Translations under genes and position numbers: made by a program
Part shown: positions 2,432 to 29,283 of the stretch, one piece after another
Numbering within the stretch: the first letter of the stretch is position 1
How the letters are laid out: every line of letters starts with the position of its first letter
The notes under the pieces: generated by a model
The model's database searches: none
What the model was told of the DNA's origin: nothing
What the model saw: only the letters and a program-made list of their open reading frames with translations
From: Bacillota bacterium
GTDB lineage: Bacteria > Bacillota > Clostridia > Lachnospirales > Anaerotignaceae
Assembly: GCA_017534115.1 (NCBI GenBank)
Contig: JAFWDD010000065.1
Location: 2,142 to 66,141, forward strand
DNA: 64,000 bases
Reading direction: 5' to 3'

Positions 2432-2461
2432 CTTAAACCCTCCCCTCGGTTCAGCTGATTT

Positions 2462-3076: not shown

Positions 3077-3099
3077 AGAGGTCACCTCCGTTTCTTAAT

Positions 3100-6940: not shown

Positions 6941-7079
6941 ATTCATAGTACTAATTACCGAATTAAAACAAATTCCGGTAATCATGCTGAGTCAAAACGG
7001 TGGAGTACAACAATAATCCCATTACCAGCAGAGTTTGAAAAACCTATTTATACATATTAAAACAGAGAGGATGTGCGTC

Positions 7080-7664
7080 ATGCCTAAAACGCGTTCTTTG
7101 AAGCGCCCATCTGTTGCAGATCTAAAAGAAGAATTAAAGCGCGAAAATTATAAAATTAAATACAATTATCTGCTTCGTGGTACAATTTCTGCTCTTGTCG
7201 TAATTGCTGCCGCTGCTGTTTTGGCTGCCACATTGTTCTTCCCTGTTATGAGAATTTTCGGGAATTCAATGACTCCGACCCTTCATGAAGGAGAAATTGT
7301 TATTGCCGTAAAAAGAAATAATTTTCAGTCAGGTGACATTATTGGATTTTACTATGGTAATAAGCTTTTAGTTAAAAGATATATTGCCGGACCAGGAGAC
7401 TGGGTAAACATTTCTGAAGACGGCACAGTTTTTGTAAATGAAAAGAAGCTTGAAGAACCTTACGTAGATGAAAAATCCTTCGGAGACTGCAACATCAAAT
7501 TGCCATATCAGATTCCTGACGGCAGATACTTTGTGCTGGGCGACCATCGTTCTACTTCAATAGATTCAAGGAATACAACCGTTGGATGTATTGCTGAAGA
7601 ACAAATAGTAGGCACAATCGTTTTTTGCGTATGGCCTTTGTCTGATATAAGGAACATCAATTAA
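7080..7664 (+). CDS. Signal peptidase I (S26), first gene of the pilus operon
   Basis: N-terminal TM segment. Catalytic-Ser box GNSMTPTL, Lys box LVKRYIAGPGD and box E GDHRSTSIDSR are all present. Start moved to ATG 7080, with GAGAGG 9 nt upstream. Confidence 0.85.
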   Translation: MPKTRSLKRPSVADLKEELKRENYKIKYNYLLRGTISALVVIAAAAVLAATLFFPVMRIFGNSMTPTLHEGEIVIAVKRNNFQSGDIIGFYYGNKLLVKRYIAGPGDWVNISEDGTVFVNEKKLEEPYVDEKSFGDCNIKLPYQIPDGRYFVLGDHRSTSIDSRNTTVGCIAEEQIVGTIVFCVWPLSDIRNIN

Positions 7665-7678
7665 GGAGTTATTTTTAT

Positions 7679-11788: not shown

Positions 11789-11873
11789 CACCTTAGGGGC
11801 AAAAACACATTAATTATTCTGATATAACCAAATAAAAAAAAACTACAATACTAAAAAGAAAGGAAAATGTAAA

Positions 11874-13388
11874 ATGAAAAAAATCAAAAACCTGCTTCCT
11901 ATCCTAATAGCAGGCATTATGGTCATGGCATTATCTGCCACCGCTTTTGCGGCCGGCGATGGAAGCATTACAGTAAACGGCACAACATCAGGAAAATCTT
12001 ATGAGATCTACAAAATTTTCGATTTGACAAAATCCAGCGGAGACAGTGTCTCCTACACTATCGATGACGACTGGACAGACTTTTTCTTTGATGGTTCAGG
12101 AGACTTAACAACCAATGGTACTAAATATCTTCTTACATCTCAACCCGCAGGCGAAAGCTACACTCAGATAGTATATGCCGGCACAGTATATTATGTAAAA
12201 ATTACAGACAGCAATGTTGCAAACTTTGCAAACGACGCACAGGAATATGCAGGAAGCAAGGCGCCTGACGATTCCAAAACTGCAACAGGCGATTCCGTTG
12301 TTTTTGATGATATTCCTCTTGGATACTACCTTGTTCTTCCCGTTGACGCTACGGAAATCAAAGAAGGAAACAGCTCAATCTGTTCAATCACAAACGCTGC
12401 TCCCGACGGTGAAGTAAATATTAAAGGAGAATACCCTGATATTGATAAAACTGTTGATGATGACGACGTTGAAGTCGGACAGGAAGTTACATACACAATC
12501 ACTGGAGAAGTTCCCGATACAACAGGATATGATACTTTTACCTACAAGGTCCATGATACCATGGATTCTGGCCTGACCTTCGGCACGACCGCTGCCACCA
12601 CCAACTTTACCGTAGAGTTTGGTGAAGCCACGATCTACGACAGCAGCACTTCGCTTCCCGACGGTATGACTTTGAATTTCGATAACAATGGCTTTGTGTT
12701 AAATTTCGATATGGTAAAATTCCAGAATTATAAAGGTCAACCTATCACCATAAGTTACAATGCTGTTGTCAACGACGAAGCCGTATGCCAGTTGACCGAG
12801 AACGATGCTTATCTTGAATATGGTCATGATCCCGATGAACTTGAAGAAACCACACATAAGGAAATTCCTGTTTACTCTTCAAAAATTGTAATCAACAAAT
12901 ATGACGGAAACAACACTGAAAACAAGCTTGCAGAAGCTAAATTCGTTCTTTACAAAGTCGTAGACGGCGCAAAGCATTACTACAAATACACAGCAGCATC
13001 CGGAACAACTCCCGCTAAAGTAGAATGGGTAGAAGAAGTAACTGCAGGCGTTATTCCTACTGGCGCAACGGAAGTTGAAACAAACACTGACGGCGAAGCA
13101 ACATTTTCAGGTCTTGAAGGCGGAGAATACTGGCTCCACGAAACAGAATCACCTGACGGATACAATCTGCTTACAGCTGATACAAAAGTAACTGTAACCG
13201 CACCTACATATGTAGATGAAAAACCCATCGGCGTTTCCGTAACAGCCGACGTACCTAATAACAGCGGTTCAACCTTACCAGAGACCGGAGGTATGGGTAC
13301 AAGAATCTTTTACATCATAGGAGCCGCCCTTATAGCAGGCGCAGGAATAACTCTTTTTGTTCGCAAACGCATTTCTGACGAAAAATAA
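11874..13388 (+). CDS. Major (backbone) pilin, LPETG sortase substrate
   Basis: Signal peptide (AFA/AG), a YPDIDK pilin-motif-like lysine context, an E-box YWLHETESPDGY, and C-terminal LPETGG followed by a TM segment and KRISDEK. It sits next to a class C sortase gene. Confidence 0.85.
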   Translation: MKKIKNLLPILIAGIMVMALSATAFAAGDGSITVNGTTSGKSYEIYKIFDLTKSSGDSVSYTIDDDWTDFFFDGSGDLTTNGTKYLLTSQPAGESYTQIVYAGTVYYVKITDSNVANFANDAQEYAGSKAPDDSKTATGDSVVFDDIPLGYYLVLPVDATEIKEGNSSICSITNAAPDGEVNIKGEYPDIDKTVDDDDVEVGQEVTYTITGEVPDTTGYDTFTYKVHDTMDSGLTFGTTAATTNFTVEFGEATIYDSSTSLPDGMTLNFDNNGFVLNFDMVKFQNYKGQPITISYNAVVNDEAVCQLTENDAYLEYGHDPDELEETTHKEIPVYSSKIVINKYDGNNTENKLAEAKFVLYKVVDGAKHYYKYTAASGTTPAKVEWVEEVTAGVIPTGATEVETNTDGEATFSGLEGGEYWLHETESPDGYNLLTADTKVTVTAPTYVDEKPIGVSVTADVPNNSGSTLPETGGMGTRIFYIIGAALIAGAGITLFVRKRISDEK

Positions 13389-13461
13389 TTCCTGAAACTG
13401 TATATAAGTTAGCAGGCTTTACCAATATCTATATTTTCAACTTATATAATTAATTCTCAGT

Positions 13462-13497
13462 CCGTACCCTCTGCGATTGCTCCGCAGAGGGATACGG
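13462..13497 (+). other. Strong intercistronic stem-loop between the pilin and sortase genes
   Basis: CCGTACCCTCTGCG / CGCAGAGGGATACGG forms a ~14-bp stem with one bulge and a 7-nt loop. No U-tract follows. Confidence 0.6.
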
Positions 13498-13516
13498 TAA
13501 TAAGGAGTGTCCTGTA

Positions 13517-14362
13517 TTGAAGAAGGGTAAAACCACAACCATTATATTGATTATTTTTTTTCTAATTGGGCTTTGCTTATTGCTGTATCCAAAGGTAAGC
13601 AATTACTGGAATTCATTTCATCAGACAAAAGTAGTAAATCAATATATCGAAGAAGTAACGGGCATAGATGACTCAGTATATGAAGCAATGATGAAAGAGG
13701 CTGAACAATACAATCTTTCTCTTCTTGACCGTGAAAACAAGTTTGCCTTAACAAAAGAACAAGAAGTACTCTACCCGAATATCCTTAATGTTGCAGGCAA
13801 CAGCATTATGGGATATATTGAGATACCTGTCATAGGAGTAACTCTTCCAATTTATCACGGTACATCTAATTCCGTACTTCAAACCGCAATCGGCCATATA
13901 GAATGGACAAGTCTGCCAATAGGCGGCAGGAGCACCCACTGTGCTCTTTCCGGACATAGAGGCCTTCCTTCAAGCAAGCTTTTTACAGACCTGGACAAAT
14001 TAGTTGTAGGTGATACATTTTACCTCCGAGTTTTAAATGAAACCCTCACATATGAGGTAGACCAGATATTGATTGTCGAACCTGAGGATACAGTTCCTTT
14101 GGAAATTACTCCCAATTGCGACTATTGCACTCTTGTGACCTGCACTCCCTATGGTATCAACACGCATCGTTTGCTTGTACGCGGGCATCGAACAGAGAAC
14201 GACACATCAATCTCTAATGTACATATTACAGCTGATGCTATTCAAATCGAGCCTTTACTTGCCGCACCGGCATTCTTTGCTGTGATTTTAATTATTGCTC
14301 TGATTGTATATGCGATTACCCAAAAGGTCAGAAGACTTAATAAGGAGAATAACCATGATTAA
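13517..14362 (+). CDS. srtC: Class C (pilin-polymerising) sortase
   Basis: N-terminal and C-terminal TM anchors, an active-site His context (ALSGHRG), TLVTCTPYGINTHRLLVRG with the Cys and Arg. TTG start with AAGGAG 9 nt upstream. Confidence 0.85.
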   Translation: MKKGKTTTIILIIFFLIGLCLLLYPKVSNYWNSFHQTKVVNQYIEEVTGIDDSVYEAMMKEAEQYNLSLLDRENKFALTKEQEVLYPNILNVAGNSIMGYIEIPVIGVTLPIYHGTSNSVLQTAIGHIEWTSLPIGGRSTHCALSGHRGLPSSKLFTDLDKLVVGDTFYLRVLNETLTYEVDQILIVEPEDTVPLEITPNCDYCTLVTCTPYGINTHRLLVRGHRTENDTSISNVHITADAIQIEPLLAAPAFFAVILIIALIVYAITQKVRRLNKENNHD

Positions 14363-15626
14363 CTTAAATATAAAATCAAAAAAATGGTTTATGTTTATCA
14401 TATGTACCATATTGTCCGTGGCACTTCTGCCGGTATGCGCCTTCGCAAAAATACCGGTGACTTCAAGCGGTTCCTCCTCCCTGACAATCGTTTGCAAAGA
14501 TAAGGGAACTCCTCTTGAAGGAATCACTTATGATTTATACAAAATTGCCGACACAGATGATAAAGGAGGTTTCTCATTAACGAAAGAATTTGAGAACTAT
14601 TCCATTTCCTTTGAACAGGATTCCGCGGAAGATATACGTGCCCTTGCCAAGACCTTGTCTCTGTATGCAATCAGGGACGAAATACCCTTTGTTTCGCAGG
14701 CAAAGACTGGAAAAAACGGAAAAGCTCTGCTCCGGAACCTTTCTGCCGGCTTATACCTGGCATATGGTCACAAATACACGGATAAAGAGAAGGATTTTAC
14801 TTATACTCCTGAGCCGATCCTGGTCAATCTCAAAAAAGCTGGCTCACCTGACAGTCCATTTTACAATATTACTGTAAATAGCAAAGGCGGTATAGGAGGC
14901 GGAGATACTCCGGAAACAACCGTTGTCAAGGTGCTGAAGGTATGGGATGACAAAGGTAACGAAGAAAACCGTCCTTCCGAAATCGAAGCAGAGCTTTTGA
15001 GAAACGGAAAAGTATACGATACCGTTATATTAAACGCAAAAAACAACTGGAAATACACATGGAAAAATCTCAGCCCAGATTACGAATGGAGTGTCGTTGA
15101 AAAATCGGTCCCCAGGGATTATTCCATGATCATTTCCAAAGAAGGCATCACTTATGTACTGACAAATAAATACCATCCGGAATTAACAACAGTTGAAGCC
15201 GAAAAAGTATGGAATGACAAAGGACATGAAAAAGAACGCCCTAAAAGCATTGAGGTAACCCTTTTTCGCAGCGGTGAAGAATATGAAACTGTAATATTAA
15301 GCGACACCAATGGATGGAAATACACATGGACAGATTTGGATCCCAAATACACATGGACTGTGAAAGAGGCCTCATATTTCAGCGAATATACCCAAAGTGT
15401 AGAACAAAAAGGCGGTAAATTCACAATTACCAATACATACATTCCTCTCGAGCCTCCGGCCGAGTCTGAGAATAATCCTCCGCCGGTCAATACTCCTCCG
15501 ACCGATTATCCTGACCTGCCGCAGACAGGACAGCTTTGGTGGCCTATTCCTATTCTCATATTGTCAGGGCTCTTATTCTATGCGGCAGGTTTTGTTTTAA
15601 ATAACAAAACAAAAAATGATGATTAA
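14355..15626 (+). CDS. CnaB-repeat minor/basal pilin, LPQTG sortase substrate
   Basis: Start moved to ATG 14355 (MINLNIKSKKW...) with AAGGAG upstream; it overlaps the srtC stop. Signal peptide, two CnaB repeats (KVWDDKGNEENRPSEIEAELLRNG..., KVWNDKGHEKERPKSIEVTLFRSG...), then LPQTG, a TM segment and a basic tail. Confidence 0.85.
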   Translation: MINLNIKSKKWFMFIICTILSVALLPVCAFAKIPVTSSGSSSLTIVCKDKGTPLEGITYDLYKIADTDDKGGFSLTKEFENYSISFEQDSAEDIRALAKTLSLYAIRDEIPFVSQAKTGKNGKALLRNLSAGLYLAYGHKYTDKEKDFTYTPEPILVNLKKAGSPDSPFYNITVNSKGGIGGGDTPETTVVKVLKVWDDKGNEENRPSEIEAELLRNGKVYDTVILNAKNNWKYTWKNLSPDYEWSVVEKSVPRDYSMIISKEGITYVLTNKYHPELTTVEAEKVWNDKGHEKERPKSIEVTLFRSGEEYETVILSDTNGWKYTWTDLDPKYTWTVKEASYFSEYTQSVEQKGGKFTITNTYIPLEPPAESENNPPPVNTPPTDYPDLPQTGQLWWPIPILILSGLLFYAAGFVLNNKTKNDD

Positions 15627-16272
15627 AAATAATAAAAATATAAATCAATATCTTCTTTTCATAATTGGAACCATACTTATTGTTTCTGCCGCATTATTAT
15701 ATTTATATAACACAAAGACCAATTTTAATGCACATATTCAGTCTGAAGCCATTGTGGAACAGATACACGAAACATCCGAAGAGTATGGGGAACTTTTTTA
15801 CTCCGGGCAATTAATACCTGATTATATACTTGTTCCCGGCATAGAAATGCCTTCCACCGATATAGACGGTAACCTTTATATAGGCACCCTCACCTTTCCC
15901 GATTTGAATCTGGAACTGCCCGTTATGGGAGATTGGAGCTATCCGAAGCTGAAGATCTCACCATGCCTTTATTCAGGGTCAATATATGAACACAATGCCG
16001 TTATTGCTGCCCATAATTATAACAGTCATTTCGGTAGACTGTCCGAGCTTGATTATGACAGTAGCGTCATATTCACAGATATAGAAGGAAACAGATTTCT
16101 TTTTGTAGTTGCTGCTAAAGAGATTTTAGAGCCAAAATCGACAGAAGACATGGTAAACAGCGGTTTCGAGCTGAGCTTATATACATGCACGTTAAGCGGA
16201 ACATCAAGATATACCGTAAGGTGCAAGCTCATTCAATCACCTGATGGTTCAACCTCCGGTGTAATGTATTAA
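15616..16272 (+). CDS. Second sortase (non-class-C, housekeeping-type)
   Basis: N-terminal TM anchor, a His context (VIAAHNYNSHFG), an LYTCT Cys motif and the RYTVRC Arg. The start overlaps the upstream stop. Confidence 0.75.
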   Translation: MMIKNNKNINQYLLFIIGTILIVSAALLYLYNTKTNFNAHIQSEAIVEQIHETSEEYGELFYSGQLIPDYILVPGIEMPSTDIDGNLYIGTLTFPDLNLELPVMGDWSYPKLKISPCLYSGSIYEHNAVIAAHNYNSHFGRLSELDYDSSVIFTDIEGNRFLFVVAAKEILEPKSTEDMVNSGFELSLYTCTLSGTSRYTVRCKLIQSPDGSTSGVMY

Positions 16273-16345
16273 ATCCTCGTCCGGTATTACAACTTCTGAA
16301 AATAGTTACAATAATACTCATGATAGCATTCTGGGAGAGATAAAT

Positions 16346-17104
16346 ATGGCACATAACGCATTGGACCTCAGAGGGCAAAAGTTCGGATTTCTTACCGCTC
16401 TTTTCAGACTGCCCGAAACAGAAAACCGATATTTTTTATGGGAATGCAGATGTGACTGCGGAAAACATGTCCAGGTATCCACCAAAAACCTAACAAAAGG
16501 TATAGTTAAAAGCTGCGGATGCCAAAGATCCCATCAAAAACAATCCACAAACAGAATAAAAGGCAAACGTTTCGGCAGACTCATAGCTCTTACCGCCACA
16601 AAAAAACGAAGTTATAAAGGGTCCATAATTTGGCAGTGCAAATGCGACTGCGGCAATATAACCGAAGCATCCGCGGACGCACTTCTTCATGGCAATAAAA
16701 CCAGCTGCGGATGCAGAAAAAATGAACTTAAAAATTCGATTCATGACCAACTGACTTTTGTAGACAGCACTTGCATAGAATGGCTGCGTTCAAGGAAAAA
16801 CCGCAAGGATAATACAAGCGGCTTCAGAGGAGTATATGAATCACATGGAAAATGGCGCGTATCCATCGGATTTAAAAAAAGGAGATATTACTACGGTACA
16901 TATGACACTTTCGAACAGGCCAAAGCTGCCAGGCTTGAAATCGAAAAGATTCTTCATGATGATTTTATCGCGGCATGGGAAAAGTGGCTGGAAGCCTCAA
17001 AAGATGACCCAGAATGGGCCGAAACACATCCGTTTGAATTCAATGTTCAAAAGGTTAACGGAAAAATCACCATACAATCAAATATTCTTGACAGTACCCT
17101 TTAA
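16346..17104 (+). CDS. AP2-like DNA-binding protein with two Cys4 zinc-ribbon repeats
   Basis: Two repeats of G.(K/R)FG.L..L....W.C.CDCG.....L..G...(S)CGC. The C-terminal SGFRGVYESHGKWRVSIGFKKRRYYYGTYDTFEQAKAARLE matches the AP2/integrase-type DNA-binding fold. Confidence 0.65.
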   Translation: MAHNALDLRGQKFGFLTALFRLPETENRYFLWECRCDCGKHVQVSTKNLTKGIVKSCGCQRSHQKQSTNRIKGKRFGRLIALTATKKRSYKGSIIWQCKCDCGNITEASADALLHGNKTSCGCRKNELKNSIHDQLTFVDSTCIEWLRSRKNRKDNTSGFRGVYESHGKWRVSIGFKKRRYYYGTYDTFEQAKAARLEIEKILHDDFIAAWEKWLEASKDDPEWAETHPFEFNVQKVNGKITIQSNILDSTL

Positions 17105-17151
17105 AGAATTCAAATAACTTTAATAATTTAAAAAGAAAGGACGTATATCAG

Positions 17152-17442
17152 ATGAACAAAACAGATTTAGCAAGAGAATTATCCCAAACAGTCGGTATAT
17201 CCCAAAAGGCGGCTCTTGATTATACAAATGCTATGCTGGATATACTAGTAAGAAGCTTAAACAAAAAAGAACCCATAAAATTCATTGGATTCGGCTCGTT
17301 CAGAGTAAAACTCGTCTCCAAGCGGATAGCAAGAAATCCTCACACAAATGAGATAATTGAAATCCCCGAACACTACAGAACAGTTTTCAAGGCAAGCACC
17401 AAGCTGCTTGAGCATTTAAATGCGGCAGCCTTGAAATCATAA
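17152..17442 (+). CDS. HU/IHF-family nucleoid protein
   Basis: 96 aa with MNKTDLA...FGSFRVK...RIARNPHTNEIIEIP, the canonical HU arm. Confidence 0.85.
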   Translation: MNKTDLARELSQTVGISQKAALDYTNAMLDILVRSLNKKEPIKFIGFGSFRVKLVSKRIARNPHTNEIIEIPEHYRTVFKASTKLLEHLNAAALKS

Positions 17443-17453
17443 TTGATACACAT

Positions 17454-17483
17454 AGGGGATTAGCGCATATCAGCTTATCCCCT
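17454..17483 (+). terminator. Possible terminator after the HU gene
   Basis: AGGGGAT / ATCCCCT stem with a 16-nt loop. The U-tract is weak (TTG). Confidence 0.35.
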
Positions 17484-17892
17484 TTGCCTCCACTTAATTT
17501 ATCTAGCACAGATATACCTAAATCTAAATTTAAAATTATGTAACATATTTTAAAGATAAAACAGCCCTGTTGTTAATTGAAAAAACTACATGTTAGTTTC
17601 ATAATGACATATTAGAAATGGAACAACGTTGCAAATAATGACCCTAATTGTTTCTTCGCTGTTCCCTTTATATTTGAAGTTTTTTATTCAGATGGCGAAA
17701 TAGTTATGCATACTCTAGTTTTGAGTGTGTCAAAGCAAGATGATAATGGAATATAAGATATTTTGATAAATCAGAAAAACCAAGCGTATTTTTCCCAAAA
17801 AACCAACTTAAAAAACTATAGGCAGAGCTGTTAGTCCAGTTATGACCTGTTTATTACATATAAAACCATATAATTAAAAGGAGAAAAACTAT

Positions 17893-20037
17893 ATGAAGAA
17901 AAAAAATTTTCTTGTTGCAGTAATGTTAGTGATGCTGATTCTGCTTAGCACTATAGGAACAGCGTTTGCAACGGAGTACTCGCCCATCGATCCTGATGAT
18001 CAGGGAAAAAGCAGCCTTATTGGCGGAGACACATTAGCCTTTACTGATGATACGGTATGGGCAAACCTGACTGCACGCTGGGGCGTGCGCGTCATCTTTC
18101 AGGATGGTGATGAATGGAGCAACGCAGAACTGAAGAGCGAGCTGATCCCGGTGACGGACAGCGCAGCCGGCAGCACAACTACACCAGACGATCCGATCCA
18201 TGAGGGCTGGACGTTTAACGGCTGGGAAAGGGTCGATACCAACAACGGCTCATCAACCCTGAATGACGACGGAACGGTGACCGGCATAAACGGCCCGGGA
18301 CCTATCATCTATCAGGCAGTGTATGAGCCGATCCCGCCCAAGACCGGCGGCCTGACTGTGAGTAAGACAATCAGTGGCGACGCAGCTGACGCTACACATG
18401 CGTTCACCTTCACCGTGACCCTTTCCGATACAACGGTCAGCGGCGAGTTTGGCGATATGGCCTTTGAAGAAGGTATTGCTACCTTCAAGCTGAAGGGTGG
18501 AGAGCGTATAACAGCGGAGGGACTGCCTGCTGGAGCAAGCTACGTCGTTGTTGAAAGCGATAACCGTGGCTATAGAATTACAAAGACCGGCGATACTGGT
18601 GAAATCGTAGACGGCAAAACTGTAGTTGCGGCTTTTACCAACATAAGGAACAGCTCTTCTCCATCTGACTCGGACGATCCCCCCGTGGCGCCCAAAATCG
18701 GCAGTTTGACTATTAGCAAGACGGTTTTAGGAACAGCCAGTGATATGGATAAAGCATTTACTTTCACGGTAACTTTCAGTTCCAGCGGAACATACAGTTA
18801 TACAGGCAGCAAGAGCGGAACAATTCACAGCGGCGGCACGGTGCAACTGAAGGATGGTGAATCCATAACAATCAGCGGCATTCCTGCTGATACAAGCTAT
18901 ATGGTTGCGGAAAGCGACAACGAAGGATACGAAGTTTACAAGAGCGGAGATACGGGAACGATTGCCGCTAATAGCACATCAACGGCATCATTCAGGAACA
19001 GACATGAAGCAGCTCCGCCTCCAATCGATGATCCAAATAAATCGGATGCGCCAGACGAGCGTCCGACTGACCCTTTCAAGCCTGACAATCCGGATAAGCC
19101 GAATAAACCGGTTACACCGCCTACAACATCCAATCCGCCGAACGATCCAGGCACTCCCAATCAGCCAAATGAACCCTGCACACCTGACACTCCGAGCGAG
19201 TCTGTGACGCCGCAGACCGGAGATAACAGCAACATGACGCTGTGGCTCGGCATTCTTCTGACTTCCTTCGGCGGGATGATCGTCTGCCTCGTGCTGTTCA
19301 GAAAGAAGAAGCATGTGGGCAATCATACAAACATGCTTCTGATTCTAATGCTTGTAGGCATAATTGCCTTCTCCGGCTTTAGCGCAACCAATGCCTTTGC
19401 TGCAGAAGATAGCACCACCGGTTATACATACGGTCAGTATGACATGACCTACCTGCCTGGCACCACGGATACCGTGACCAATATGCCCGAAAACGAGACG
19501 AGCCTTACTCCTGGCGCTAACAACCCTTATACCATCTCTTCCACTGTTCCTATGCGCGAAGGCTTTGAGTTCATAGACTGGACGCTCACTTGGGGAACCA
19601 TGGAAAAGCCTATCCCTCTGACGGACTATGTAGTGAAGTATCTGGATATTGACACGCTAGAACCTGTAACAGAAGATAAGACCGTAACTGGCCTTGAGGT
19701 CGGAACGTCTGTAAACGAGAACGCTGTTGGAGTGGATGGTTATACAGCTCTTGATCCGACAGAAGCTACTCTAGTGCTGGCTGAAAACGGCAACGAGATC
19801 ATATTCTATTATAAGAAGCAACCAGTTCTGACATCATACACAATATACTACCTTGACGCAAATACTGAAGAAATGATTTCACCTCCTAAAATCAAAACGA
19901 ATGTCCCAATAGGTGATTCTATTACAGAATATGCAGTCGAAGTCTCCGATTATTATCCTATAGGTACAAGTATTAACTTTACAACAAAAGAAAGTGGGAA
20001 CGAGTATAAGTTTTACTATCTTTTTAAAGAAGATTAA
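17893..20037 (+). CDS. Surface protein with an internal PQTG sorting signal followed by a second signal-like segment and MucBP-like repeats
   Basis: Signal peptide, GWTFNGW Listeria-Bacteroides-type repeat, two pilin-isopeptide-type domains (TVSKTISGDAADATHAFTFTVTLSD..., TISKTVLGTASDMDKAFTFTVTFSS...) and a Pro-rich stalk. Then VTPQTG (19204-19221), a TM segment and RKKKH. The same frame continues into MLLILMLVGIIAFSGFSATNAFAAE and 230 more aa. Confidence 0.8.
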   Translation: MKKKNFLVAVMLVMLILLSTIGTAFATEYSPIDPDDQGKSSLIGGDTLAFTDDTVWANLTARWGVRVIFQDGDEWSNAELKSELIPVTDSAAGSTTTPDDPIHEGWTFNGWERVDTNNGSSTLNDDGTVTGINGPGPIIYQAVYEPIPPKTGGLTVSKTISGDAADATHAFTFTVTLSDTTVSGEFGDMAFEEGIATFKLKGGERITAEGLPAGASYVVVESDNRGYRITKTGDTGEIVDGKTVVAAFTNIRNSSSPSDSDDPPVAPKIGSLTISKTVLGTASDMDKAFTFTVTFSSSGTYSYTGSKSGTIHSGGTVQLKDGESITISGIPADTSYMVAESDNEGYEVYKSGDTGTIAANSTSTASFRNRHEAAPPPIDDPNKSDAPDERPTDPFKPDNPDKPNKPVTPPTTSNPPNDPGTPNQPNEPCTPDTPSESVTPQTGDNSNMTLWLGILLTSFGGMIVCLVLFRKKKHVGNHTNMLLILMLVGIIAFSGFSATNAFAAEDSTTGYTYGQYDMTYLPGTTDTVTNMPENETSLTPGANNPYTISSTVPMREGFEFIDWTLTWGTMEKPIPLTDYVVKYLDIDTLEPVTEDKTVTGLEVGTSVNENAVGVDGYTALDPTEATLVLAENGNEIIFYYKKQPVLTSYTIYYLDANTEEMISPPKIKTNVPIGDSITEYAVEVSDYYPIGTSINFTTKESGNEYKFYYLFKED

Positions 20038-20157
20038 AACAGATTATTATTAATATAGAATAATTCTTAACCACATTGAGCAGTAAATCAGCACTTAAAT
20101 GAGCGGATCAGCTTTGTCACAGAAAGGCATAGGCTTTAAAACATGGAGGAAGAATGA

Positions 20158-20952
20158 ATGAACAAAAGGAAAAAGATTGGTATACGGACACTTTTCTTTC
20201 TGTCTTGTATCGTCTTCCTTTTCAGCGGATATATGCTGCTCCGCAATGCAGTAAAGTACATGGCGGCGACAGACACCTATCAGGCACTACGAACAGAAGT
20301 TCAAAGTAGCACTCTCACTGTCACATGGAAAGGATCGGCAAAGAATGGAGAAATAAACGAAGTAAAAACTGTACTGGAGCCACTTGTATCTATGGACTTT
20401 TCCTCTTTGCTGGAAATCAATCCGGAGATCGTCGCTTGGATCAGAATCGAAGGAACCAATATTGACTACCCCGTTATGCAAACAGTTAACAACATCTATT
20501 ATCTAACACACATGTATAACGGGGAATATAACAACAGCGGCTCCATCTTTATGGATTACCGCTGCAATGCAGATTTTTCAGACAAAAACACTGTTTTCTA
20601 TGGTCACCACATGAGAAACTCAACCATGTTCGGTGATCTGGAGAAATACAAAAGCCAGGAGTTCTATGATTATAACCCCAACATAACAATATTCACACCA
20701 GAAGGAGACTTTGTCATCGAACTTATTTCTGGAACTGTCGAGAACGGCAACTACGAATTTGTTCGGTTTGATTTAGAAAACGACGATGATTTTCTAAGCT
20801 ACATAGACGAACTGAGACGCCGATCCACCTTTACAAGCGACGTGGAAGTGCGGGCAGACGATCAAATCATATGCCTCTGCACATGTTCCTACGAATGGAA
20901 CAATGCAAGGTATATGGTGGTTGGGCGTCTGGTACGGTTATATCAGCAGTAA
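20158..20952 (+). CDS. srtB: Class B sortase
   Basis: N-terminal TM segment, NTVFYGHHMRNSTMFGDL, and LCTCSYEWNNARYMVVGRL with the Cys and Arg. GGAGGA lies 7 nt upstream. Confidence 0.8.
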   Translation: MNKRKKIGIRTLFFLSCIVFLFSGYMLLRNAVKYMAATDTYQALRTEVQSSTLTVTWKGSAKNGEINEVKTVLEPLVSMDFSSLLEINPEIVAWIRIEGTNIDYPVMQTVNNIYYLTHMYNGEYNNSGSIFMDYRCNADFSDKNTVFYGHHMRNSTMFGDLEKYKSQEFYDYNPNITIFTPEGDFVIELISGTVENGNYEFVRFDLENDDDFLSYIDELRRRSTFTSDVEVRADDQIICLCTCSYEWNNARYMVVGRLVRLYQQ

Positions 20953-21520: not shown

Positions 21521-21531
21521 GAGTGAAGTTA

Positions 21532-22302
21532 ATGAGTAATACTAATAACTTTATAGCGCAAGTTAATGATTTTATATCTCAAGGTGAAAAAATTATGAAA
21601 GAGGAATATCACGTAACCACTCCCGGACTGATAATGCCAGATTCTATCGGTGGTCCAAAATCAGATCAATGGTTTAATGAGATAAACATATTTAACAGCA
21701 GAACTTTAATTAATCATCCACTACATAATCAGATTGATGAAGTGTGTAAAAATCATAAGTATTCATGGACTACTGCTCACGAAGATATGATGGGATACTT
21801 GAAAGCACTCGCCTCGGATGATGTATTTTGGAGAGAAATTGAAGCAGAAGCAAGTGCAGAAGGAAGGAAATCAGTAATGTCATATGATGTTTTTATTTCA
21901 CATGCAAACGCAGACAAAATAGAATATGTGGATCAGTTGAAACAGTCACTTGATAGACTCAGCATTAGCATTTTCTATGATAAAGACACTTTGAAATGGG
22001 GCGACAATTGGAAGGAAATGATTTTAAAAGGCATTAAACAAGCAGAATTTGCGATAATCGTTATCTCAGAGAATTTCTTTGGCCGTGAATGGACTGAGAA
22101 AGAATTAAATGAATTATTGAATCGGCAAAATTCAAACGGGCAGAAGATAATACTGCCAATTCTTCATAAAATTACCCTCTCCCAGCTAACGGAGAAATAT
22201 CCTGCTGTAGCAGATATTCAAGCTCTCGACTCAGCAAAGTATACTTGTGACGAAATCGCGGTTAAGTTTGCCGGTGAACTCATTAAGCGTTTGAAAACAT
22301 GA
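21532..22302 (+). CDS. TIR-domain protein with an unassigned ~120-aa N-terminal region
   Basis: The C-terminal half reads YDVFISHANADKIEYV...FYDKDTLKWGDNW...AEFAIIVISENFFGREWTEKELNELL...ILPILH, the bacterial TIR pattern. Start placed at ATG 21532, with AGGAG 8 nt upstream. Confidence 0.8.
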   Translation: MSNTNNFIAQVNDFISQGEKIMKEEYHVTTPGLIMPDSIGGPKSDQWFNEINIFNSRTLINHPLHNQIDEVCKNHKYSWTTAHEDMMGYLKALASDDVFWREIEAEASAEGRKSVMSYDVFISHANADKIEYVDQLKQSLDRLSISIFYDKDTLKWGDNWKEMILKGIKQAEFAIIVISENFFGREWTEKELNELLNRQNSNGQKIILPILHKITLSQLTEKYPAVADIQALDSAKYTCDEIAVKFAGELIKRLKT

Positions 22303-22989
22303 ACTATTTTGTATTTACAGATGAAGCGAGTACATACAAGCGCCGCCCCAGTGATGCGCATATCCTATGCCATCCGTTTTACATACACTCAAATGCCCTA
22401 ATGGATATTGACGATTACCGGCAATATCAGATCGAGGTGCAGCACATTGGTTGCAAGTACGAACCCCCTTTCGATGATTAACTTAAGTGGTCGGATTTGT
22501 GAAGAAAAAGAAAAAATCCTCGTAATTATTTGATTGCACAGATGCCGGAGAATCGCTTAAAATGATACTATCGAAATATTTTTGAAACGGCAGTCGGAAA
22601 AGAATCCACGCGGTTCATGTTTACTGTAACAGATATCGCAGGTCGGACATTTGACCTGAACAATGATACTGTGTATCGGTTCCATATGCAAGATGCTTTT
22701 CAGCTAATACAGATGGATATGGGTACAGACGATTTTGCAACCTTCGAGATTGATGAACTGAATGAAGGTACAATCAAATAACTAAAAGCAGTTTGTCACG
22801 AGTTTACTGTCAACGGTGATTTCGTAAAATATAAGAACATATATCATGAGGTTCTGGCTGAAAACAGCTCAATAGCCCAGGCATACAGCTTGCCGACTAT
22901 TCAGCTGGTGTAATGAACGGATATATACGCGGAATGATCGTCTCCCGGGAAATTATCAGTTTACTACGGATTTATATAATGAATTTATA
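22299..22989 (+). pseudogene. Decayed DUF3800-like gene
   Basis: It starts MNYFVFTDEAS (DUF3800-like N-terminus) but stops after 60 codons. The family's PGIQLADYSAG motif appears at 22876-22908 in a different frame. Several frame changes and stops lie in between. Confidence 0.55.
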
Positions 22990-23122
22990 AAACCGCGTAT
23001 TCGTTGTTATAATAACAAAAAATCGTTGGATACGGTGTGGTGGGTATCCCGAAAAATACACCTTTTAGAAAACAACTGGATTCAATTTTAATGTGTAAAT
23101 AATACATGAAAATAATAAAAAG

Positions 23123-23161
23123 AAATGGCTATATAAAGCATAAAGCTCAATATAGCCATTT
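23123..23161. terminator. Bidirectional terminator between convergent transcription units
   Basis: AAATGGCTATAT / ATATAGCCATTT forms a 12-bp stem. It is flanked by an A-run upstream and TTTTC downstream. Confidence 0.6.
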
Positions 23162-23418
23162 TTCTATGTTCATTCCTCTTGAAGACATCGCTAATTACAG
23201 TTAAAGGAGTTTTGCATAATGACAACAAATAAATACCGCCATCTGTACGCCATACTCATGTATAAGATTCAAACGATTATAATCTATTTGCCCAGAATTG
23301 TCAAATTCTATTCTACTTCATTTTACATTTCAGGAATTGACCCGTAACATATGTTATTTGATATAATTCGAACGCTTTTTATGTACATAATGAATCTCCA
23401 TAGCTTCAAGTAAATAAT

Positions 23419-26229
23419 TTAAGACTTCATATACTTTGCCAATTCCTTAAAGGCTTTCGGGAATTTTTTCTTTCTGTCTTCAAAATTATAAGGAATCCAA
23501 ATGTCATCACCCAAATATTCTTTTATCACATTAAGCATGACGTTGTTTTCGCCAAGGCGCTCAATAACATTTAGCTTAATTTCTTCAATCATAAAAATAT
23601 TGTTAGAATCTAATTTACATTCATCAAAAGGAATTGTTGTATTACATCCATCAAACTCAAATCCATAAAAAAGTGCACTTGCATCATATTTTTTACTATA
23701 TTTTAAATTGTCGTCAATAACAGTATGACGATTTCTTTTATTGAATTCTTCTTTAATTTCCCACCTTTGCAAAAGTTTTTTATGAGTAATATAAGCGGAT
23801 GTATCATACAGCCCTAATTCAACTGCTCTGCTTCTATTCAAAACAAAAGGTGCTTTAATATTTAATTCAGCAATATTTTCGTTATAATCAATTCTAAGTT
23901 GTGGGTCAGTATCAATAAATACAATATGCTCTGTATTTGCAGCCACCACAAAAGCCGGACAAAACAAGGTGAATCCATCTTTAGTTAGGAGATAATTTAT
24001 ATCATGTAACAGAAGTTTTCCTAAGTTATTGTCGCTACCTTTTGTATTGAATCTATAATAAGTATAATCTTCTGCTTCTGAATTACATATTAATAATCTC
24101 GCTAATATATACTTATATAATTCTTTTATGACACCTTTTTCATCGGGAAATTCAAGAATTTTTTTCCGAGATAAATCTAATTTAAGCCTGCATTTTTTAT
24201 CGACAACCGAAACGCTTGGTACCCATACTAAAAGGCCAAGTCCTTCACCCATTGAATATGGTTCTATTTCCGGAACGACAATTCCGTTGCAATAGTATTT
24301 TTCTAAATCATTGCTATTAACATAATTAACGTATCCGTGATTTCCTGTATATCTCCATCTAAGACTTTCATATTCTGAACTTTCAAAAATAAACCAATCT
24401 TCATTTGCCACATCATTATTTTGTGGAACGAATATTCTTTTCGCATAAGGATTCATTTCGTTTCCATCAAAATAATATCGAACATCAGGATCTTTAAAAA
24501 CATACCACTCATACCACTTTATGTCAGACGGTTTTTCTTCACCCTTAAGGTGTTTTATGGCTTTATCACTAAGCTTAATGACAATTCTTGTTCCAATATG
24601 ATCAAACTTCTTGCGTTCAATATTTATGACGTTGTTATCCATACCAAAATCAAAGGAATATCCCAAATTCTCGTCAATATGTTTTGTCTCCACATGAATG
24701 GAGATTCCCAGCAAAAACCCGGCCAAAACGCCAATTCCGAATTTGCCTGTCCGTACAACGTTGGCGGTCTTTCCATCCTCGGGCGCAAAATTCTTTTTCC
24801 ACGAATCGCTGTTGCGGAAGGAAGCGCCTATCGTAAGGAAATAATTCAGCAGGATGTCCTCGTTCATGCCTGTTCCATTGTCGGTTATTGTAAAAATTTT
24901 CTTTTTTGTATCAATATTTATAACCACTTTGGGGATATATTCAGTATTCCCTTTACCTTCCTCAAGCTTTTTTCTTTCTCGACAAGCATCTACCGCATTT
25001 TGGAGAAGCTCGCGAACACCATAACTGGGGTCATCTCCGTAAAGAGGGGCTATGAGAAGCTTTACTATGTCATGGTTTACTTTGATTTTGGATTCTTTAA
25101 TAACAAATTTTTTATTAAAATCATCTCTTGAGAACTTATCCAAAATATTGCTGGTAATCCTGTGAATTGACAATTTATATACGTCAGCTGTATATTTTTC
25201 TGCCAACAAAGCCCAAGAAAGGTCAATTTCTCGCTGTACGGCCTTTAACCATTGCTCTATTTTATTGAATTTCTGCGAGTTATCAGGATCAGCGTGAATA
25301 TTAAGCCCTTGTGATAAATCATCCCAACAATTATCATCAAAATTAATGCATTGGTTCCATTTCCACTCGTCTTTCGAAAGGGGAACCTCAATCTCCTGCC
25401 TATGCTCGAGCACAATGGGTGCGCGATGTTCGCCTGCATCAAGGTAATCTGCCAGTCTAAGCACCGACATTAAATAGAAAACAGGAATATCTTTTATTTT
25501 GCCAAAGAAAATAGCATTTCTCCCGTAGTTCTCCTTTATGTAATCTTCAGTCTCCAACATATTCATACCATGGCTTCTTGCAATAAGGCCTATAATATCT
25601 TTGTAATCATCAAGCTCTCCTGTATTTATAAATATATCCTCCGTTTTACTTCCGGGGAATCCTTCCAAAGCAATATGATGTGACAAGCGAGGATGATACC
25701 GGCGGAAAAATTCGCCATACACCCTAATATCCTCTTTATTTATAGCAGATATATCCATTTTATCAAAATCAACAGGATGGCTTTGATTAAACATATTTAT
25801 AAGCTGACGGTCATTAAACCTCTTTACCTCTTTTTTATACTCTTCCCATGCCTCTTCCCATGTGAGCTTATCGAGAGGCTCAATTTTACATCCGGAAAAC
25901 TCTCCTGCAAGAAGCTTTTCAACTCCGGCGTCAGTAATAAACATGCCCAAATCATGTGCAGCGATTGACCCGATAAGCACAGCTATATCGCGAGGCTTCA
26001 GCTTCTTCATAGTTTCATCGGGTATGAGCTTGTCCGCCAATTCAAGAGTTTTCTCTATGTGGATTGTTCCATGTGAGGTATAATCAGGGAAAAACTCAGG
26101 CGAACCAGCATAATAGTTTTCTACATTTTCCAGTATCTTAACTGCATCCCCATGCCAAGTTCCGTTTTTACTCGAACTTGATTCTTCAAGCAGCTTGTCT
26201 TTTAATCGGTTAGGTATAGCTATCGTCAT
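23419..26229 (-). CDS. HD-domain + GHKL (Hsp90/MORC-type) ATPase fusion protein, 936 aa
   Basis: HD signature SHGTIHIEKT...AAHDLGM...RRYHPRLSH...LRLADYLD in aa ~50-270. GHKL motifs VRELLQNAVDA, ITDNGTGM and TGKFGIGV in aa ~405-510. The last ~400 aa are unassigned. Confidence 0.8.
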   Translation of the reverse strand: MTIAIPNRLKDKLLEESSSSKNGTWHGDAVKILENVENYYAGSPEFFPDYTSHGTIHIEKTLELADKLIPDETMKKLKPRDIAVLIGSIAAHDLGMFITDAGVEKLLAGEFSGCKIEPLDKLTWEEAWEEYKKEVKRFNDRQLINMFNQSHPVDFDKMDISAINKEDIRVYGEFFRRYHPRLSHHIALEGFPGSKTEDIFINTGELDDYKDIIGLIARSHGMNMLETEDYIKENYGRNAIFFGKIKDIPVFYLMSVLRLADYLDAGEHRAPIVLEHRQEIEVPLSKDEWKWNQCINFDDNCWDDLSQGLNIHADPDNSQKFNKIEQWLKAVQREIDLSWALLAEKYTADVYKLSIHRITSNILDKFSRDDFNKKFVIKESKIKVNHDIVKLLIAPLYGDDPSYGVRELLQNAVDACRERKKLEEGKGNTEYIPKVVINIDTKKKIFTITDNGTGMNEDILLNYFLTIGASFRNSDSWKKNFAPEDGKTANVVRTGKFGIGVLAGFLLGISIHVETKHIDENLGYSFDFGMDNNVINIERKKFDHIGTRIVIKLSDKAIKHLKGEEKPSDIKWYEWYVFKDPDVRYYFDGNEMNPYAKRIFVPQNNDVANEDWFIFESSEYESLRWRYTGNHGYVNYVNSNDLEKYYCNGIVVPEIEPYSMGEGLGLLVWVPSVSVVDKKCRLKLDLSRKKILEFPDEKGVIKELYKYILARLLICNSEAEDYTYYRFNTKGSDNNLGKLLLHDINYLLTKDGFTLFCPAFVVAANTEHIVFIDTDPQLRIDYNENIAELNIKAPFVLNRSRAVELGLYDTSAYITHKKLLQRWEIKEEFNKRNRHTVIDDNLKYSKKYDASALFYGFEFDGCNTTIPFDECKLDSNNIFMIEEIKLNVIERLGENNVMLNVIKEYLGDDIWIPYNFEDRKKKFPKAFKELAKYMKS

Positions 26230-26393
26230 AAAACCCCGCCTTTATGCAAAAAAATCACCAATTTATCTTTTGTATAAATATACCATATTTTTCCGATTTT
26301 TTCAACATTTCCCCCGTAAATTCGACACAAATTGACAATAAATGGCAAGATAGGTATAATTGAAATATATTGCCTGCAAAGGAGGGGATCCCT

Positions 26394-27998
26394 GTGGCAA
26401 ATCCAGACGTACTGTCTGTTAATCTCTTTATAAATACAATTAATGAATCCAATAAAAACAACAAAAGATTTTGCTTCATTTTAGGCTCCGGTGCTTCTGT
26501 CGAATCCGGTATTCCCACCGGAAACAAATTGGAAATGGATTGGATGGATTGGATTATGGATCCGAAAATCAATAATGTGGATGATTTTCGTGATTTGGCA
26601 AAAGAATTGCATGAAAAAAAGCTTATACGCTCTACATTTGATGAACTTCAAAACGAATGGAATACTGCAAAAAAGGGCTCCAAATCTATTGACAGTAAAT
26701 ATTATTCTGACATATATACCCTTCGTTTTTATCCTGATATAAGCAATGGTTACGGATATTTGGAAAAGCTTATGGAGCGCAGTAAGCCGAGCATAGGCTA
26801 TCATACCCTTTCTCATCTGCTTACGCATAAAAATCTTAATAATTTTGTGATTACAACTAACTTTGACAGTCTTGTGGAAGATTCCTTATTTATATACACA
26901 GATAAAAAGCCTTTGGTCATAAGCCATGAATCACTTGCAAAATACATTGATCCCTCTGTGCGGCGTCCAATAATCGCAAAAGTACATCGGGGAATAATGT
27001 TTGAACCGTTTAATGATCCCCAGAAAACCAGCAAGCTTGAAGAAGAATGGAAAAAACCTTTAAACGATGCTTTAAAGACATATATACCCATTGTAATAGG
27101 CTATGCCGGCGGAGATAAAAGTCTCATGTCTTTTCTGGAATCTGAGTCCGAAATAAAAAAAGGGCTTTATTGGTGCTACAGAGAGGACGATGGTTTGCCT
27201 CCCGATAATATTCTGGAATTTGTTGAAAATAATAAAGGTCACCTCGTTCCCATTGAAGGATTCGATTCTTTAATGGTAAAAATAGGAGCAAAGCTATATC
27301 CAGAAAATGTAGGTACGGGAAAAATAGAAGAATTTCTGGGGAAACAACTCAGAGATCGTGTAACCGCTTATAACGACCAATACACCAGAGTTAAGGATAA
27401 AGAAGAATCTCTCGCATCCATTAATGAGCGCGAGGCGCAGGACGAAGAAAAGCGGGAAGGAAAAGAGAACTTAACATATTGGGATTTCTTTAACCGCGGA
27501 TATAAGTATGGAGAAGAAGGAGACTATGATAAAGCAATTGCAAACTACACTGAGGCTATTAAGCGTAATCCTGATTATGCCGCCGCTTACAACAACCGCG
27601 GATTTGCTTACAATAATTCGAAAGAATCCCAAAAAGACATTGCGGTCTACAACAAAGCCATTGCGGATTTCAACAAAGCCATTGAGCTTAATCCCGATTT
27701 TGCCGAAGCTTACAACAACCGTGGGATTTCTTACAATAATTTGGAAGAATACCAAAAAGACATTGCGGATTTCAACAAAGCCATTGAACTTAATCCCGAT
27801 TTTGCTGAAGCTTACAACAACCGCGGCGTTGCTTACCACAAATCAGGCAAGCACGACAAAGCCATTGCGGACTACAACAAAGCCATTGAGCTTAATCCCG
27901 ATTATACCACAGCTTACGAAAACCGCGCCCTCGCCTACCGCGCCCTTGGCAAGGAAGACCTTGCCAAGGCGGATGAGGAAAGGGCTTCCAAGCTATAA
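26394..27998 (+). CDS. SIR2-like domain protein with C-terminal TPR repeats
   Basis: Start at GTG 26394, with AAAGGAGG 8 nt upstream. SIR2-type motifs FILGSGASVESGIPTG, ITTNFDSLVED and IAKVHRG. At least four 34-aa TPR units (AIADFNKAIELNPDFAEAYNNRG...). Confidence 0.8.
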   Translation: MANPDVLSVNLFINTINESNKNNKRFCFILGSGASVESGIPTGNKLEMDWMDWIMDPKINNVDDFRDLAKELHEKKLIRSTFDELQNEWNTAKKGSKSIDSKYYSDIYTLRFYPDISNGYGYLEKLMERSKPSIGYHTLSHLLTHKNLNNFVITTNFDSLVEDSLFIYTDKKPLVISHESLAKYIDPSVRRPIIAKVHRGIMFEPFNDPQKTSKLEEEWKKPLNDALKTYIPIVIGYAGGDKSLMSFLESESEIKKGLYWCYREDDGLPPDNILEFVENNKGHLVPIEGFDSLMVKIGAKLYPENVGTGKIEEFLGKQLRDRVTAYNDQYTRVKDKEESLASINEREAQDEEKREGKENLTYWDFFNRGYKYGEEGDYDKAIANYTEAIKRNPDYAAAYNNRGFAYNNSKESQKDIAVYNKAIADFNKAIELNPDFAEAYNNRGISYNNLEEYQKDIADFNKAIELNPDFAEAYNNRGVAYHKSGKHDKAIADYNKAIELNPDYTTAYENRALAYRALGKEDLAKADEERASKL

Positions 27999-28307: not shown

Positions 28308-28399
28308 AAAATATGTAATCACTAAATGCATCTTTCCCCGAAGCTCAACACAGCGAAACAGAACTTCTCTGACTGTGTCAACGTTTTATGTGACGTGTC
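28308..28399 (+). repeat. 92-bp dispersed repeat 'T', copy B
   Basis: See 3383-3474. Same orientation, about 5 mismatches. Confidence 0.85.
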
Positions 28400-28492
28400 T
28401 CCTTCTCTGATTCGGAGTGTTCTTCTGATTTCCTTTGGGATGACAACCCTGCCCAGGTCGTCTATCCTGCGTACTATTCCCGTTGCTTTCAT
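28397..28492 (-). pseudogene. AbrB/SpoVT-family N-terminal fragment (32 codons)
   Basis: AAAGGAGG, then ATG 28492, then MKATGIVRRIDDLGRVVIPKEIRRTLRIREGD, the swapped-hairpin AbrB/SpoVT DNA-binding N-terminus. After D32 the frame runs into repeat T and ends at 28322. Confidence 0.7.
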
Positions 28493-29064: not shown

Positions 29065-29283
29065 TCCATGCTTTATTGCATTTTTTCTGTTCAAGCCTTA
29101 TTGTATTTGACTACTTGCTGCCCTTGAAAGGGTCTTCGTATTCTTTAACACTTAATAATCCATTGCAATATCATGACGCTCTTGCTCTTTTATACCGGCT
29201 CCATATTGGCCATATATAATTGTTCGCCTATATTTAGGAATAAATACTATATGATACTTGCACAACCATTGGGCACGTCCCAT
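28981..29283 (-). mobile_element. IS200/IS605-family remnant with an internally deleted tnpA
   Basis: A 43-codon minus-strand ORF (29152-29283) reads MGRAQWLCKYHIVFIPKYRRTIIYGQYGAG|IKEQERHDIAMDY. This joins the TnpA N-terminus directly to its C-terminus. Downstream is the conserved end region with the hairpin CCACCCG-TCAAA-CGGGTGG (28982-29000). That end region is shared with 59100-59263. Confidence 0.75.

Follow-up and report, generated by a model that had tools for sequence, protein, structure and literature searches.

Divergent HD-CE-Hsp90 and SIR2-TPR genes of an Anaerotignaceae bacterium as two separate single-gene candidates for anti-phage defence

We wanted to know whether two genes that lie back to back in the genome of an uncultured Bacillota bacterium (Anaerotignaceae) constitute one defence system or two. 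The window analysed is a stretch of 64,000 nucleotides (nt) from assembly GCA_017534115.1 (contig JAFWDD010000065.1, positions 2,142 to 66,141 of the forward strand), and all coordinates below refer to it. One gene (23419..26229, minus strand) encodes a protein of 936 amino acids (aa), in which an HD-CE domain is followed by an Hsp90-like ATPase. The other (26394..27998, plus strand) encodes a 534-aa protein with a SIR2 domain and tetratricopeptide repeats (TPR). The first-pass annotation of this DNA had suggested an undescribed two-gene system, named two independent single-gene systems as the alternative, and chosen beforehand co-occurrence across genomes as the observation to decide between them. 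We observed co-occurrence at 0 of 87 loci of the first gene and in 0 of 6 contexts of the second. The two-gene reading fails because relatives of the two genes are never neighbours in other genomes, and the alternative fits the data. We are highly confident that these genes are independent, separately transcribed single-gene modules, the adjacency of which is fortuitous or at most lineage-specific. The fuller statement, that they are two independent single-gene candidate anti-phage modules side by side in an accessory island, is in our opinion probable.

The evidence for independence comes from the surroundings of the relatives. A first scan of genome contigs with a full-length alignment keyed on the GHKL motifs and returned mostly housekeeping HtpG, with a handful of true members. 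The locus set was obtained from a scan of metagenome contigs with an HD-only alignment, together with earlier look-ups. It comprised 87 loci with a true HD-Hsp90 relative, equal to 73 non-redundant groups. At least 2 kb of upstream sequence (the side of the SIR2 gene here) was present in 39 groups, at least 2 kb of downstream sequence in 35, and both in 30. A SIR2 hidden Markov model (E<=1) matched none of the 1201 open reading frames (ORFs) within 6 kb of the 87 loci, and tblastn with the SIR2 domain (E<=1e-3) found nothing at the same loci. When neighbouring ORFs were clustered all against all, the only family common to non-identical loci was a resolvase (5 loci). Among the 106 immediate neighbours, Pfam and PADLOC families each turned up at most twice. 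There was no SIR2 gene in four annotated contexts (P0003, P0005, P0090 and P0025), where the HD-Hsp90 gene was solitary; next to it was, depending on the context, a resolvase, a helicase of the SLFN type or ordinary metabolic genes. Further, six independent contexts of SIR2-TPR genes contained no HD/GHKL or TIR gene; all six differed from one another, and the gene was solitary in each. These comparisons speak against a partnership of the two genes that would be ancestral or general.

The SIR2-TPR ORF, as delimited mechanically, begins at TTG 26370. The likelier start is GTG 26394, which is preceded by AGGAGG and is also used by public gene calls for the same organism. It gives 534 aa, as does the public gene call. 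With this start the divergent pair and its 164-bp intergenic region (26230..26393), as described in the first-pass annotation, were borne out. Three contigs of this organism show the same divergent arrangement. The intergenic region contains two back-to-back promoter-like sites, which do not overlap, one for each gene. By consensus match only, the site at 26332-26360 (plus strand) agrees with TTGACA-17-TATAAT at 12/12 positions and lies ahead of AGGAGG and GTG 26394, and the site at 26305-26277 (minus strand) agrees at 10/12, has an extended -10 TG and lies ahead of ATG 26229.

The 936-aa ORF contains HGTIH, AAHDLGM, LADYLDAG, RELLQNAVDAC, DNGTGM and GKFGIG, so all HD and GHKL motifs quoted earlier are present, and Pfam assigns the protein HD-CE and HATPase_c_3 domains. 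The HD-CE phosphohydrolase domain (PF24391) occupies aa 47-336 (25222..26091, minus strand), with E 9e-37, a score of 127.6 bits (cutoff 27) and profile positions 1-262 of 263 covered. The view that this HD and GHKL protein maps to nothing known is outdated, as Pfam names its N-terminal domain HD-CE, for 'conflict effector'. In PMC12871103 the term 'CE' is used for Calcineurin-CE and credited to Nicastro, Burroughs, Iyer and Aravind (NAR 2023, doi 10.1093/nar/gkad879). Residues H53, H57, H92-D93, H179, H220, D261 and D264 of the domain were invariant in the family alignments. The AlphaFold2 model of the domain had a predicted local distance difference test score (pLDDT) of 83.6. A Foldseek search with this isolated model found no significant neighbour in the PDB.

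The GHKL domain is of the Hsp90 type. Its ATP-binding N-domain lies at aa 386-564 (24538..25074, minus strand) and was delimited by sequence profile matches, with Pfam HATPase_c_3 at aa 405-529 (E 5.6e-10). The family profile matched the N-domains of HtpG, Grp94 and TRAP1 in the PDB (E 6e-21), and hhalign against HtpG gave a probability of 99.7 across 174 columns, with the N-domain alone aligned. Residues E407, N411, D450, G452, G454, G495, G498 and G500 were invariant. The domain had been called 'Hsp90-MORC-type', and only the first half of this name was retained. We rejected a MORC/MutL-type GHKL, as the top matches in sequence and fold were all Hsp90 and there was no MutL or MORC chain among the Foldseek top 50.

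What follows the N-domain had been set aside as about 400 unassigned C-terminal residues. We assign aa 565-936 (23422..24537, minus strand) to an Hsp90-like middle region and a family-specific C-terminal region. The full-length AlphaFold2 model had a pLDDT of 81 and a predicted template modelling (TM) score of 0.72. In a Foldseek search of the PDB with this model, the top 50 matches to the predicted fold were all full-length Hsp90-family chains (E down to 1.6e-13), nearly all with 360-560 aligned columns. For this reason much of the formerly unassigned C-terminus is assigned to an Hsp90-like middle region. Since profile-profile comparison with HtpG aligned the N-domain alone, the middle-domain relationship rests on Foldseek and on a motif that resembles the catalytic loop, LDLSR (nt 24166-24180), with an invariant arginine, R688. 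In Hsp90 the arginine of the middle-domain catalytic loop contacts the gamma-phosphate of ATP. The pattern L-x-[LIV]-[DN]-L-[SA]-R was present in 20/20 aligned members (one has L at the [SA] position), 170-204 aa after GxFGxG. The equivalent in HtpG is LN[VI]SRE, 202-232 aa after GQFGVGF. A C-terminal tail of about 25 residues (23422-23500, minus strand; WIPY..E.RKKKFPKAF.EL..YM) is among the most conserved parts of the family and comes after a poorly conserved region. It may be an element for dimerisation or partner docking. Because the catalytic residues are invariant, both enzymatic parts of the protein, HD and GHKL, are likely to be active, as judged from sequence.

The protein is not a housekeeping chaperone. 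An end-to-end match to a housekeeping family, a check that had been asked for earlier, was not seen with HtpG: model NF003555 scored 66.9 bits, where the cutoff is 371, and its match was confined to aa 386-564. With HtpG and Hsp90 the protein shares the GHKL N-domain with all ATP-binding motifs, the middle-domain fold and the catalytic-loop arginine (LDLSR versus LNVSRE). It differs from them in its extra N-terminal HD domain and in its last ~220 residues and tail, which are family-specific. Further, the HD-CE-Hsp90 family is rare and patchy, whereas Hsp90 is near-universal.

More than 1090 homologs of the 936-aa protein were found, conserved over their full length at 35-46% identity, the closest at 46%. 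A profile of the C-terminal 377 residues retrieved 891 cluster representatives (50% identity) among 1.84 billion, nearly all of 890-990 aa and with the same layout. The family is therefore rare and its architecture fixed. One relative, P0248 (1518 aa), keeps the Hsp90-like part and the C-terminal module and differs in an N-terminus of ~960 aa without HD-CE, which is consistent with swapping of effector or sensor. Pfam found nothing in this N-terminus even at E<=1. By eye, it contains GLSGSPV (perhaps trypsin-like), GSDGIGKKE (perhaps Walker A-like) and helical repeats. Two apparent variants without HD, P0252 and P0302, were rejected as N-terminally truncated fragments. A distant HD and GHKL relative with 27.5% identity, L185, is located on the Bacillus mycoides plasmid p507 (NZ_CP036079.1, 438400-455710). 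Its surroundings are rich in DUF3800 genes, 'beta family'/sce7726 family genes, IS3 fragments, and helicase and HD fragments, and are more like a defence island than the contexts of most closer relatives.

A computational study of 2023 reportedly defines Calcineurin-CE, HD-CE and PRTase-CE as immune effectors that target nucleotides, and reportedly describes systems in which modules related to HSP90 and HSP70 take the place of STAND NTPases and are coupled to effectors of this kind. The class so described, which is a computational prediction, has an N-terminal HD-CE and an Hsp90-type ATPase in one polypeptide, encoded by a solitary gene, and the ATPase is the predicted switch that gates a nucleotide-targeting effector. 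If so, the 936-aa protein presumably belongs, with nothing to set it apart, to a class that had been predicted before; we detected no architectural difference.

The second protein carries a SIR2_2-type NAD-binding/NADase domain (26451..27287, plus strand), recognised by PADLOC, Pfam and PDB matches. PADLOC models of SIR2 proteins associated with prokaryotic Argonautes (pAgo) matched aa 28-306 (E 1e-39), and Pfam SIR2_2 matched with E 5.5e-6. The sole PDB match by sequence was a 'Sir2 superfamily protein' of 584-587 aa (8jkz/8in8, E 1.4e-8); the alignment included TTNFD and K[VI]H. The SIR2 motifs described before (GSGAS, TTNFD and KVHRG) and their fusion to TPR were confirmed, the repeats by Pfam. 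In 25 family members, G31-x-G33-A-S35, T154-T-N156-F, K196-x-H198-R and G236-Y-x-G-G-D241 were invariant (534-aa numbering). An asparagine and a histidine of the N156 and H198 type are catalytic in defence SIR2 NADases. A charged linker of ~55 residues separates SIR2 from four to five TPR (27486..27989, plus strand; Pfam TPR_1, E 1e-37, 4 stretches), which are presumed to be a sensor or assembly domain. In agreement with the earlier statement that SLOG and STAND domains are lacking, Pfam, NCBIfam and PADLOC gave no APAZ, SLOG, STAND or any NTPase domain in this protein.

A search with the SIR2 domain retrieved 801 homologs (E<=1e-5), a large family centred on Clostridia. The best 120 of the 801 were nearly all SIR2 plus TPR proteins of 465-611 aa with ~50% identity, a few without a precomputed SIR2_2 match; the closest SIR2-TPR homolog had 55% identity. 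The number of TPR varies, and the length differences (465-611 aa) lie in the TPR part. One relative of 716 aa is carried by a small Photobacterium plasmid.

The SIR2-TPR protein represents a variant, so far unnamed but not unexpected, of SIR2 NADase defences that consist of one gene. With DSR1 and DSR2 it shares the format, in which one polypeptide carries a SIR2 NADase at its N-terminus and alpha-helical repeats at its C-terminus, and, by analogy, possibly the logic of abortive infection. The C-terminal helical-repeat domain of DSR2 binds a phage protein. In contrast to DSR1 and DSR2, the SIR2-TPR protein is about half the size and has canonical TPR, not a HEAT-like sensor. No DSR model was among its PADLOC matches at E<=0.1, so the likeness is architectural only and we rejected membership. 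Its SIR2 domain is closest to the clade of the SPARSA SIR2-APAZ proteins and has the same catalytic Asn and His motifs. It differs from SPARSA in having TPR in place of APAZ and no Argonaute gene: the PADLOC matches span SIR2 only (profile positions 15-290 of 1010), and no flanking ORF was Argonaute-like. We also rejected Avs5/SIR2-STAND, as the linker of only ~55 residues is all that lies between SIR2 and TPR and no NTPase domain was found, and PDC-S65, the model of which was matched only in part (E 1.3e-12; aa 159-307, covering profile positions 141-288 of 592).

That both genes serve in defence is plausible, with the balance tilting slightly in favour of such a role. The analysis shows what the domains are, their catalytic residues, the fixed layout of each family, the lack of a conserved partner and the separate promoter-like sites; the role itself, the substrates and the triggers are what we infer. 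The Hsp90-like clamp of the 936-aa protein would be an ATP-dependent sensor or switch, which would engage a client protein that is either derived from the invader or perturbed by infection. Closure or dimerisation of the clamp might then release the HD domain, which would hydrolyse free nucleotides or metabolites derived from nucleotides, so that phage replication would stall. In the SIR2-TPR protein, the repeats may bind a phage protein or peptide, or mediate oligomerisation, and their engagement would switch on NAD+ hydrolysis by SIR2, with abortive infection as the outcome. The genomic context gives this moderate support. The signs of an accessory region are low GC, the TIR gene, MazE-like and IS200 fragments, variable genomic positions and low identity to the nearest relatives. 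Some relatives are near resolvases, an SLFN-type helicase, or TIR, reverse transcriptase, methyltransferase or PDC genes. Distant relatives are found on plasmids, one of them within a stretch rich in DUF3800 and IS3.

Several observations weigh against a defence role. Neither protein matched a validated defence system model in PADLOC. The 936-aa protein had no meaningful match there at all, PADLOC v2 being without a model for it, and the matches of the SIR2-TPR protein were limited to its SIR2 domain. Context supports the defence roles weakly because many relatives of both genes lie among metabolic and housekeeping genes, not in defence islands; only a handful of the 106 immediate HD-Hsp90 neighbours were defence-like. 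A scan of viral contigs found no relative. The HD-CE model showed in Foldseek a weak likeness to class I cyclic-nucleotide phosphodiesterases (E ~0.2, TM ~0.38), which are enzymes of the HD superfamily. In the searchable literature we found no experiments on either family. Searches for HD-CE, PF24391, PRTase-CE, SIR2-TPR, GHKL with HD and anti-phage, and HATPase_c_3 with defense returned nothing on them, and the eLife 2020 paper on conflict systems mentions neither HD nor Hsp90 nor SIR2. As to independence, the adjacency tests cannot detect a lineage-specific interaction confined to this one organism.

Among the other explanations, the one that survives best is that one or both genes are not immune. 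The HD-Hsp90 protein could be a nucleotide phosphodiesterase linked to stress or signalling and controlled by a chaperone-like ATPase, and the SIR2-TPR protein a regulatory NAD-dependent deacylase or ADP-ribosyltransferase that acts on a partner bound by its TPR. The mostly housekeeping or metabolic neighbours of the relatives, the lack of matches to validated defence models and of relatives on viral contigs, and the predicted likeness of the HD domain to phosphodiesterases and to no other fold would fit this explanation. Both genes also appear to be monocistronic, with strong predicted sigma-70-like promoters. However, the genomic position changes from genome to genome, the nearest relatives share little identity with the proteins, and the island is AT-rich with remnants of mobile elements. 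The HD domain falls in a family to which curators gave the name 'conflict effector', the SIR2 domain groups with the SIR2_2/pAgo-associated NADases and not with canonical sirtuins, and the HD-CE-Hsp90 family is rare. We consider a non-immune function for one or both genes unlikely.

A functional two-gene system, in which the Hsp90-like ATPase senses infection and acts with SIR2-TPR as the effector, has a conceivable physical route. The conserved tail at the C-terminus of the 936-aa protein could be a docking site for the TPR array, as eukaryotic Hsp90 is for TPR co-chaperones; TPR domains are classical partners of Hsp90, the tail is strongly conserved in the family, and the divergent arrangement around a shared 164-bp region is the same in the three contigs of this organism. 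However, the tail is basic (RKKKFPKAF) and not an acidic, MEEVD-like TPR ligand, the promoter-like sites are separate, and each family is widely distributed as solitary genes, with no co-occurrence at the 73 non-redundant HD-Hsp90 loci or in the six SIR2-TPR contexts. A two-gene system of this kind is thus very improbable. We give as little credence to its lineage-specific version, a couple in which the SIR2 protein would be docked through its TPR on the Hsp90-like module, so that one chaperone-derived sensor would fire both HD (against nucleotides) and SIR2 (against NAD+).

Weaker still is a Thoeris-like arrangement, in which a signal from a ThsB-like TIR protein would activate the SIR2 protein as a ThsA-like effector, with the HD gene inserted between them: SIR2 is indeed the effector domain of type I Thoeris (ThsA SIR2-SLOG with ThsB TIR), and at a distance of 4 kb from the SIR2 gene (under 5 kb, as in Thoeris) there is a TIR-domain gene (21523-22302, plus strand) with matches to ThsB models (E 5e-29), but that TIR protein fits the single-gene candidate PDC-S66 better (E 7e-46), the SIR2 protein ends in TPR and has no SLOG or other known sensor of nucleotide signals, no SIR2-TPR context contains a TIR gene, and the two genes, which are not in one operon, are kept apart by a gene on the opposite strand and by ~1.1 kb of decayed sequence; we dismiss this arrangement as scarcely credible.

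With two independent single-gene modules as the preferred reading, a false lead is removed: the proposed new two-gene defence system is not upheld and two single-gene candidates remain. The HD-CE-Hsp90 protein is a compact representative of a predicted class in which a chaperone-type ATPase, instead of a STAND or AAA+ NTPase, would be the immune switch. If demonstrated, it would extend bacterial immune sensing to Hsp90-type clamps. The SIR2-TPR family has hundreds of Clostridial members in gut and other metagenomes, and would provide a DSR-like NADase in minimal form, with TPR as a tractable sensor. Neither candidate is conceptually unprecedented, and both predictions are easy to test.

The two genes lie in an AT-rich accessory island of ~8 kb. 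GC at 20-28 kb is 0.35-0.39, compared with 0.43-0.50 across most of the window, and the island is bordered by a pilus/sortase cluster on one side and the trp operon (29.4-35.8 kb) on the other. The neighbourhood had been described as AT-rich, with a TIR gene and decayed DUF3800 and Mrr_N-like genes. The first two points hold, and the last was not recovered: Pfam (E<=0.05) was blank for two small ORFs (22299-22481 and 22617-22781), and a DUF3800 protein used as tblastn query gave no match. The ~1.1 kb between the TIR and HD-Hsp90 genes (22299-23418) contains short broken ORFs only. The TIR protein has an N-terminus of ~110 aa without domain assignment, and there is no ThsA-like SLOG protein nearby. 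Just downstream of the HD-Hsp90 stop codon, a perfect 12/12 TTGACA-17-TATAAT (23276-23304, minus strand) faces ~1 kb without an ORF longer than 46 aa. This promoter-like site could drive a small RNA or a small peptide, or could remain from a decayed gene.

Between the SIR2-TPR gene and trpA we observed a MazE/AbrB-like antitoxin fragment of 56 aa (28322-28492, minus strand; Pfam E 2e-7) and an N-terminal fragment of an IS200-type Y1 transposase of 43 aa (29152-29283, minus strand; E 2e-5). They resemble mobile-element and toxin-antitoxin remnants at the island edge. On the other side, the large sortase-dependent pilus/adhesin cluster (7035-20952, plus strand) encodes a signal peptidase, an LPXTG backbone pilin and three sortases, as well as a Cna_B/SpaA adhesin of 1369 aa in which a CHAP amidase domain is embedded. 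Adjoining this cluster, where the window is richest in AT (GC 0.32), is a gene for an AAA_14 and DUF4143 ATPase (4715-6031, plus strand), whose match to PDC-S01, a single-gene candidate in PADLOC, is nearly full-length (E 8.5e-93). Further upstream, a LexA-like S24 peptidase repressor gene adjoins a Y-family (impB/mucB/samB) polymerase gene (1025-3085, minus strand), and together they form an SOS mutagenesis cassette.

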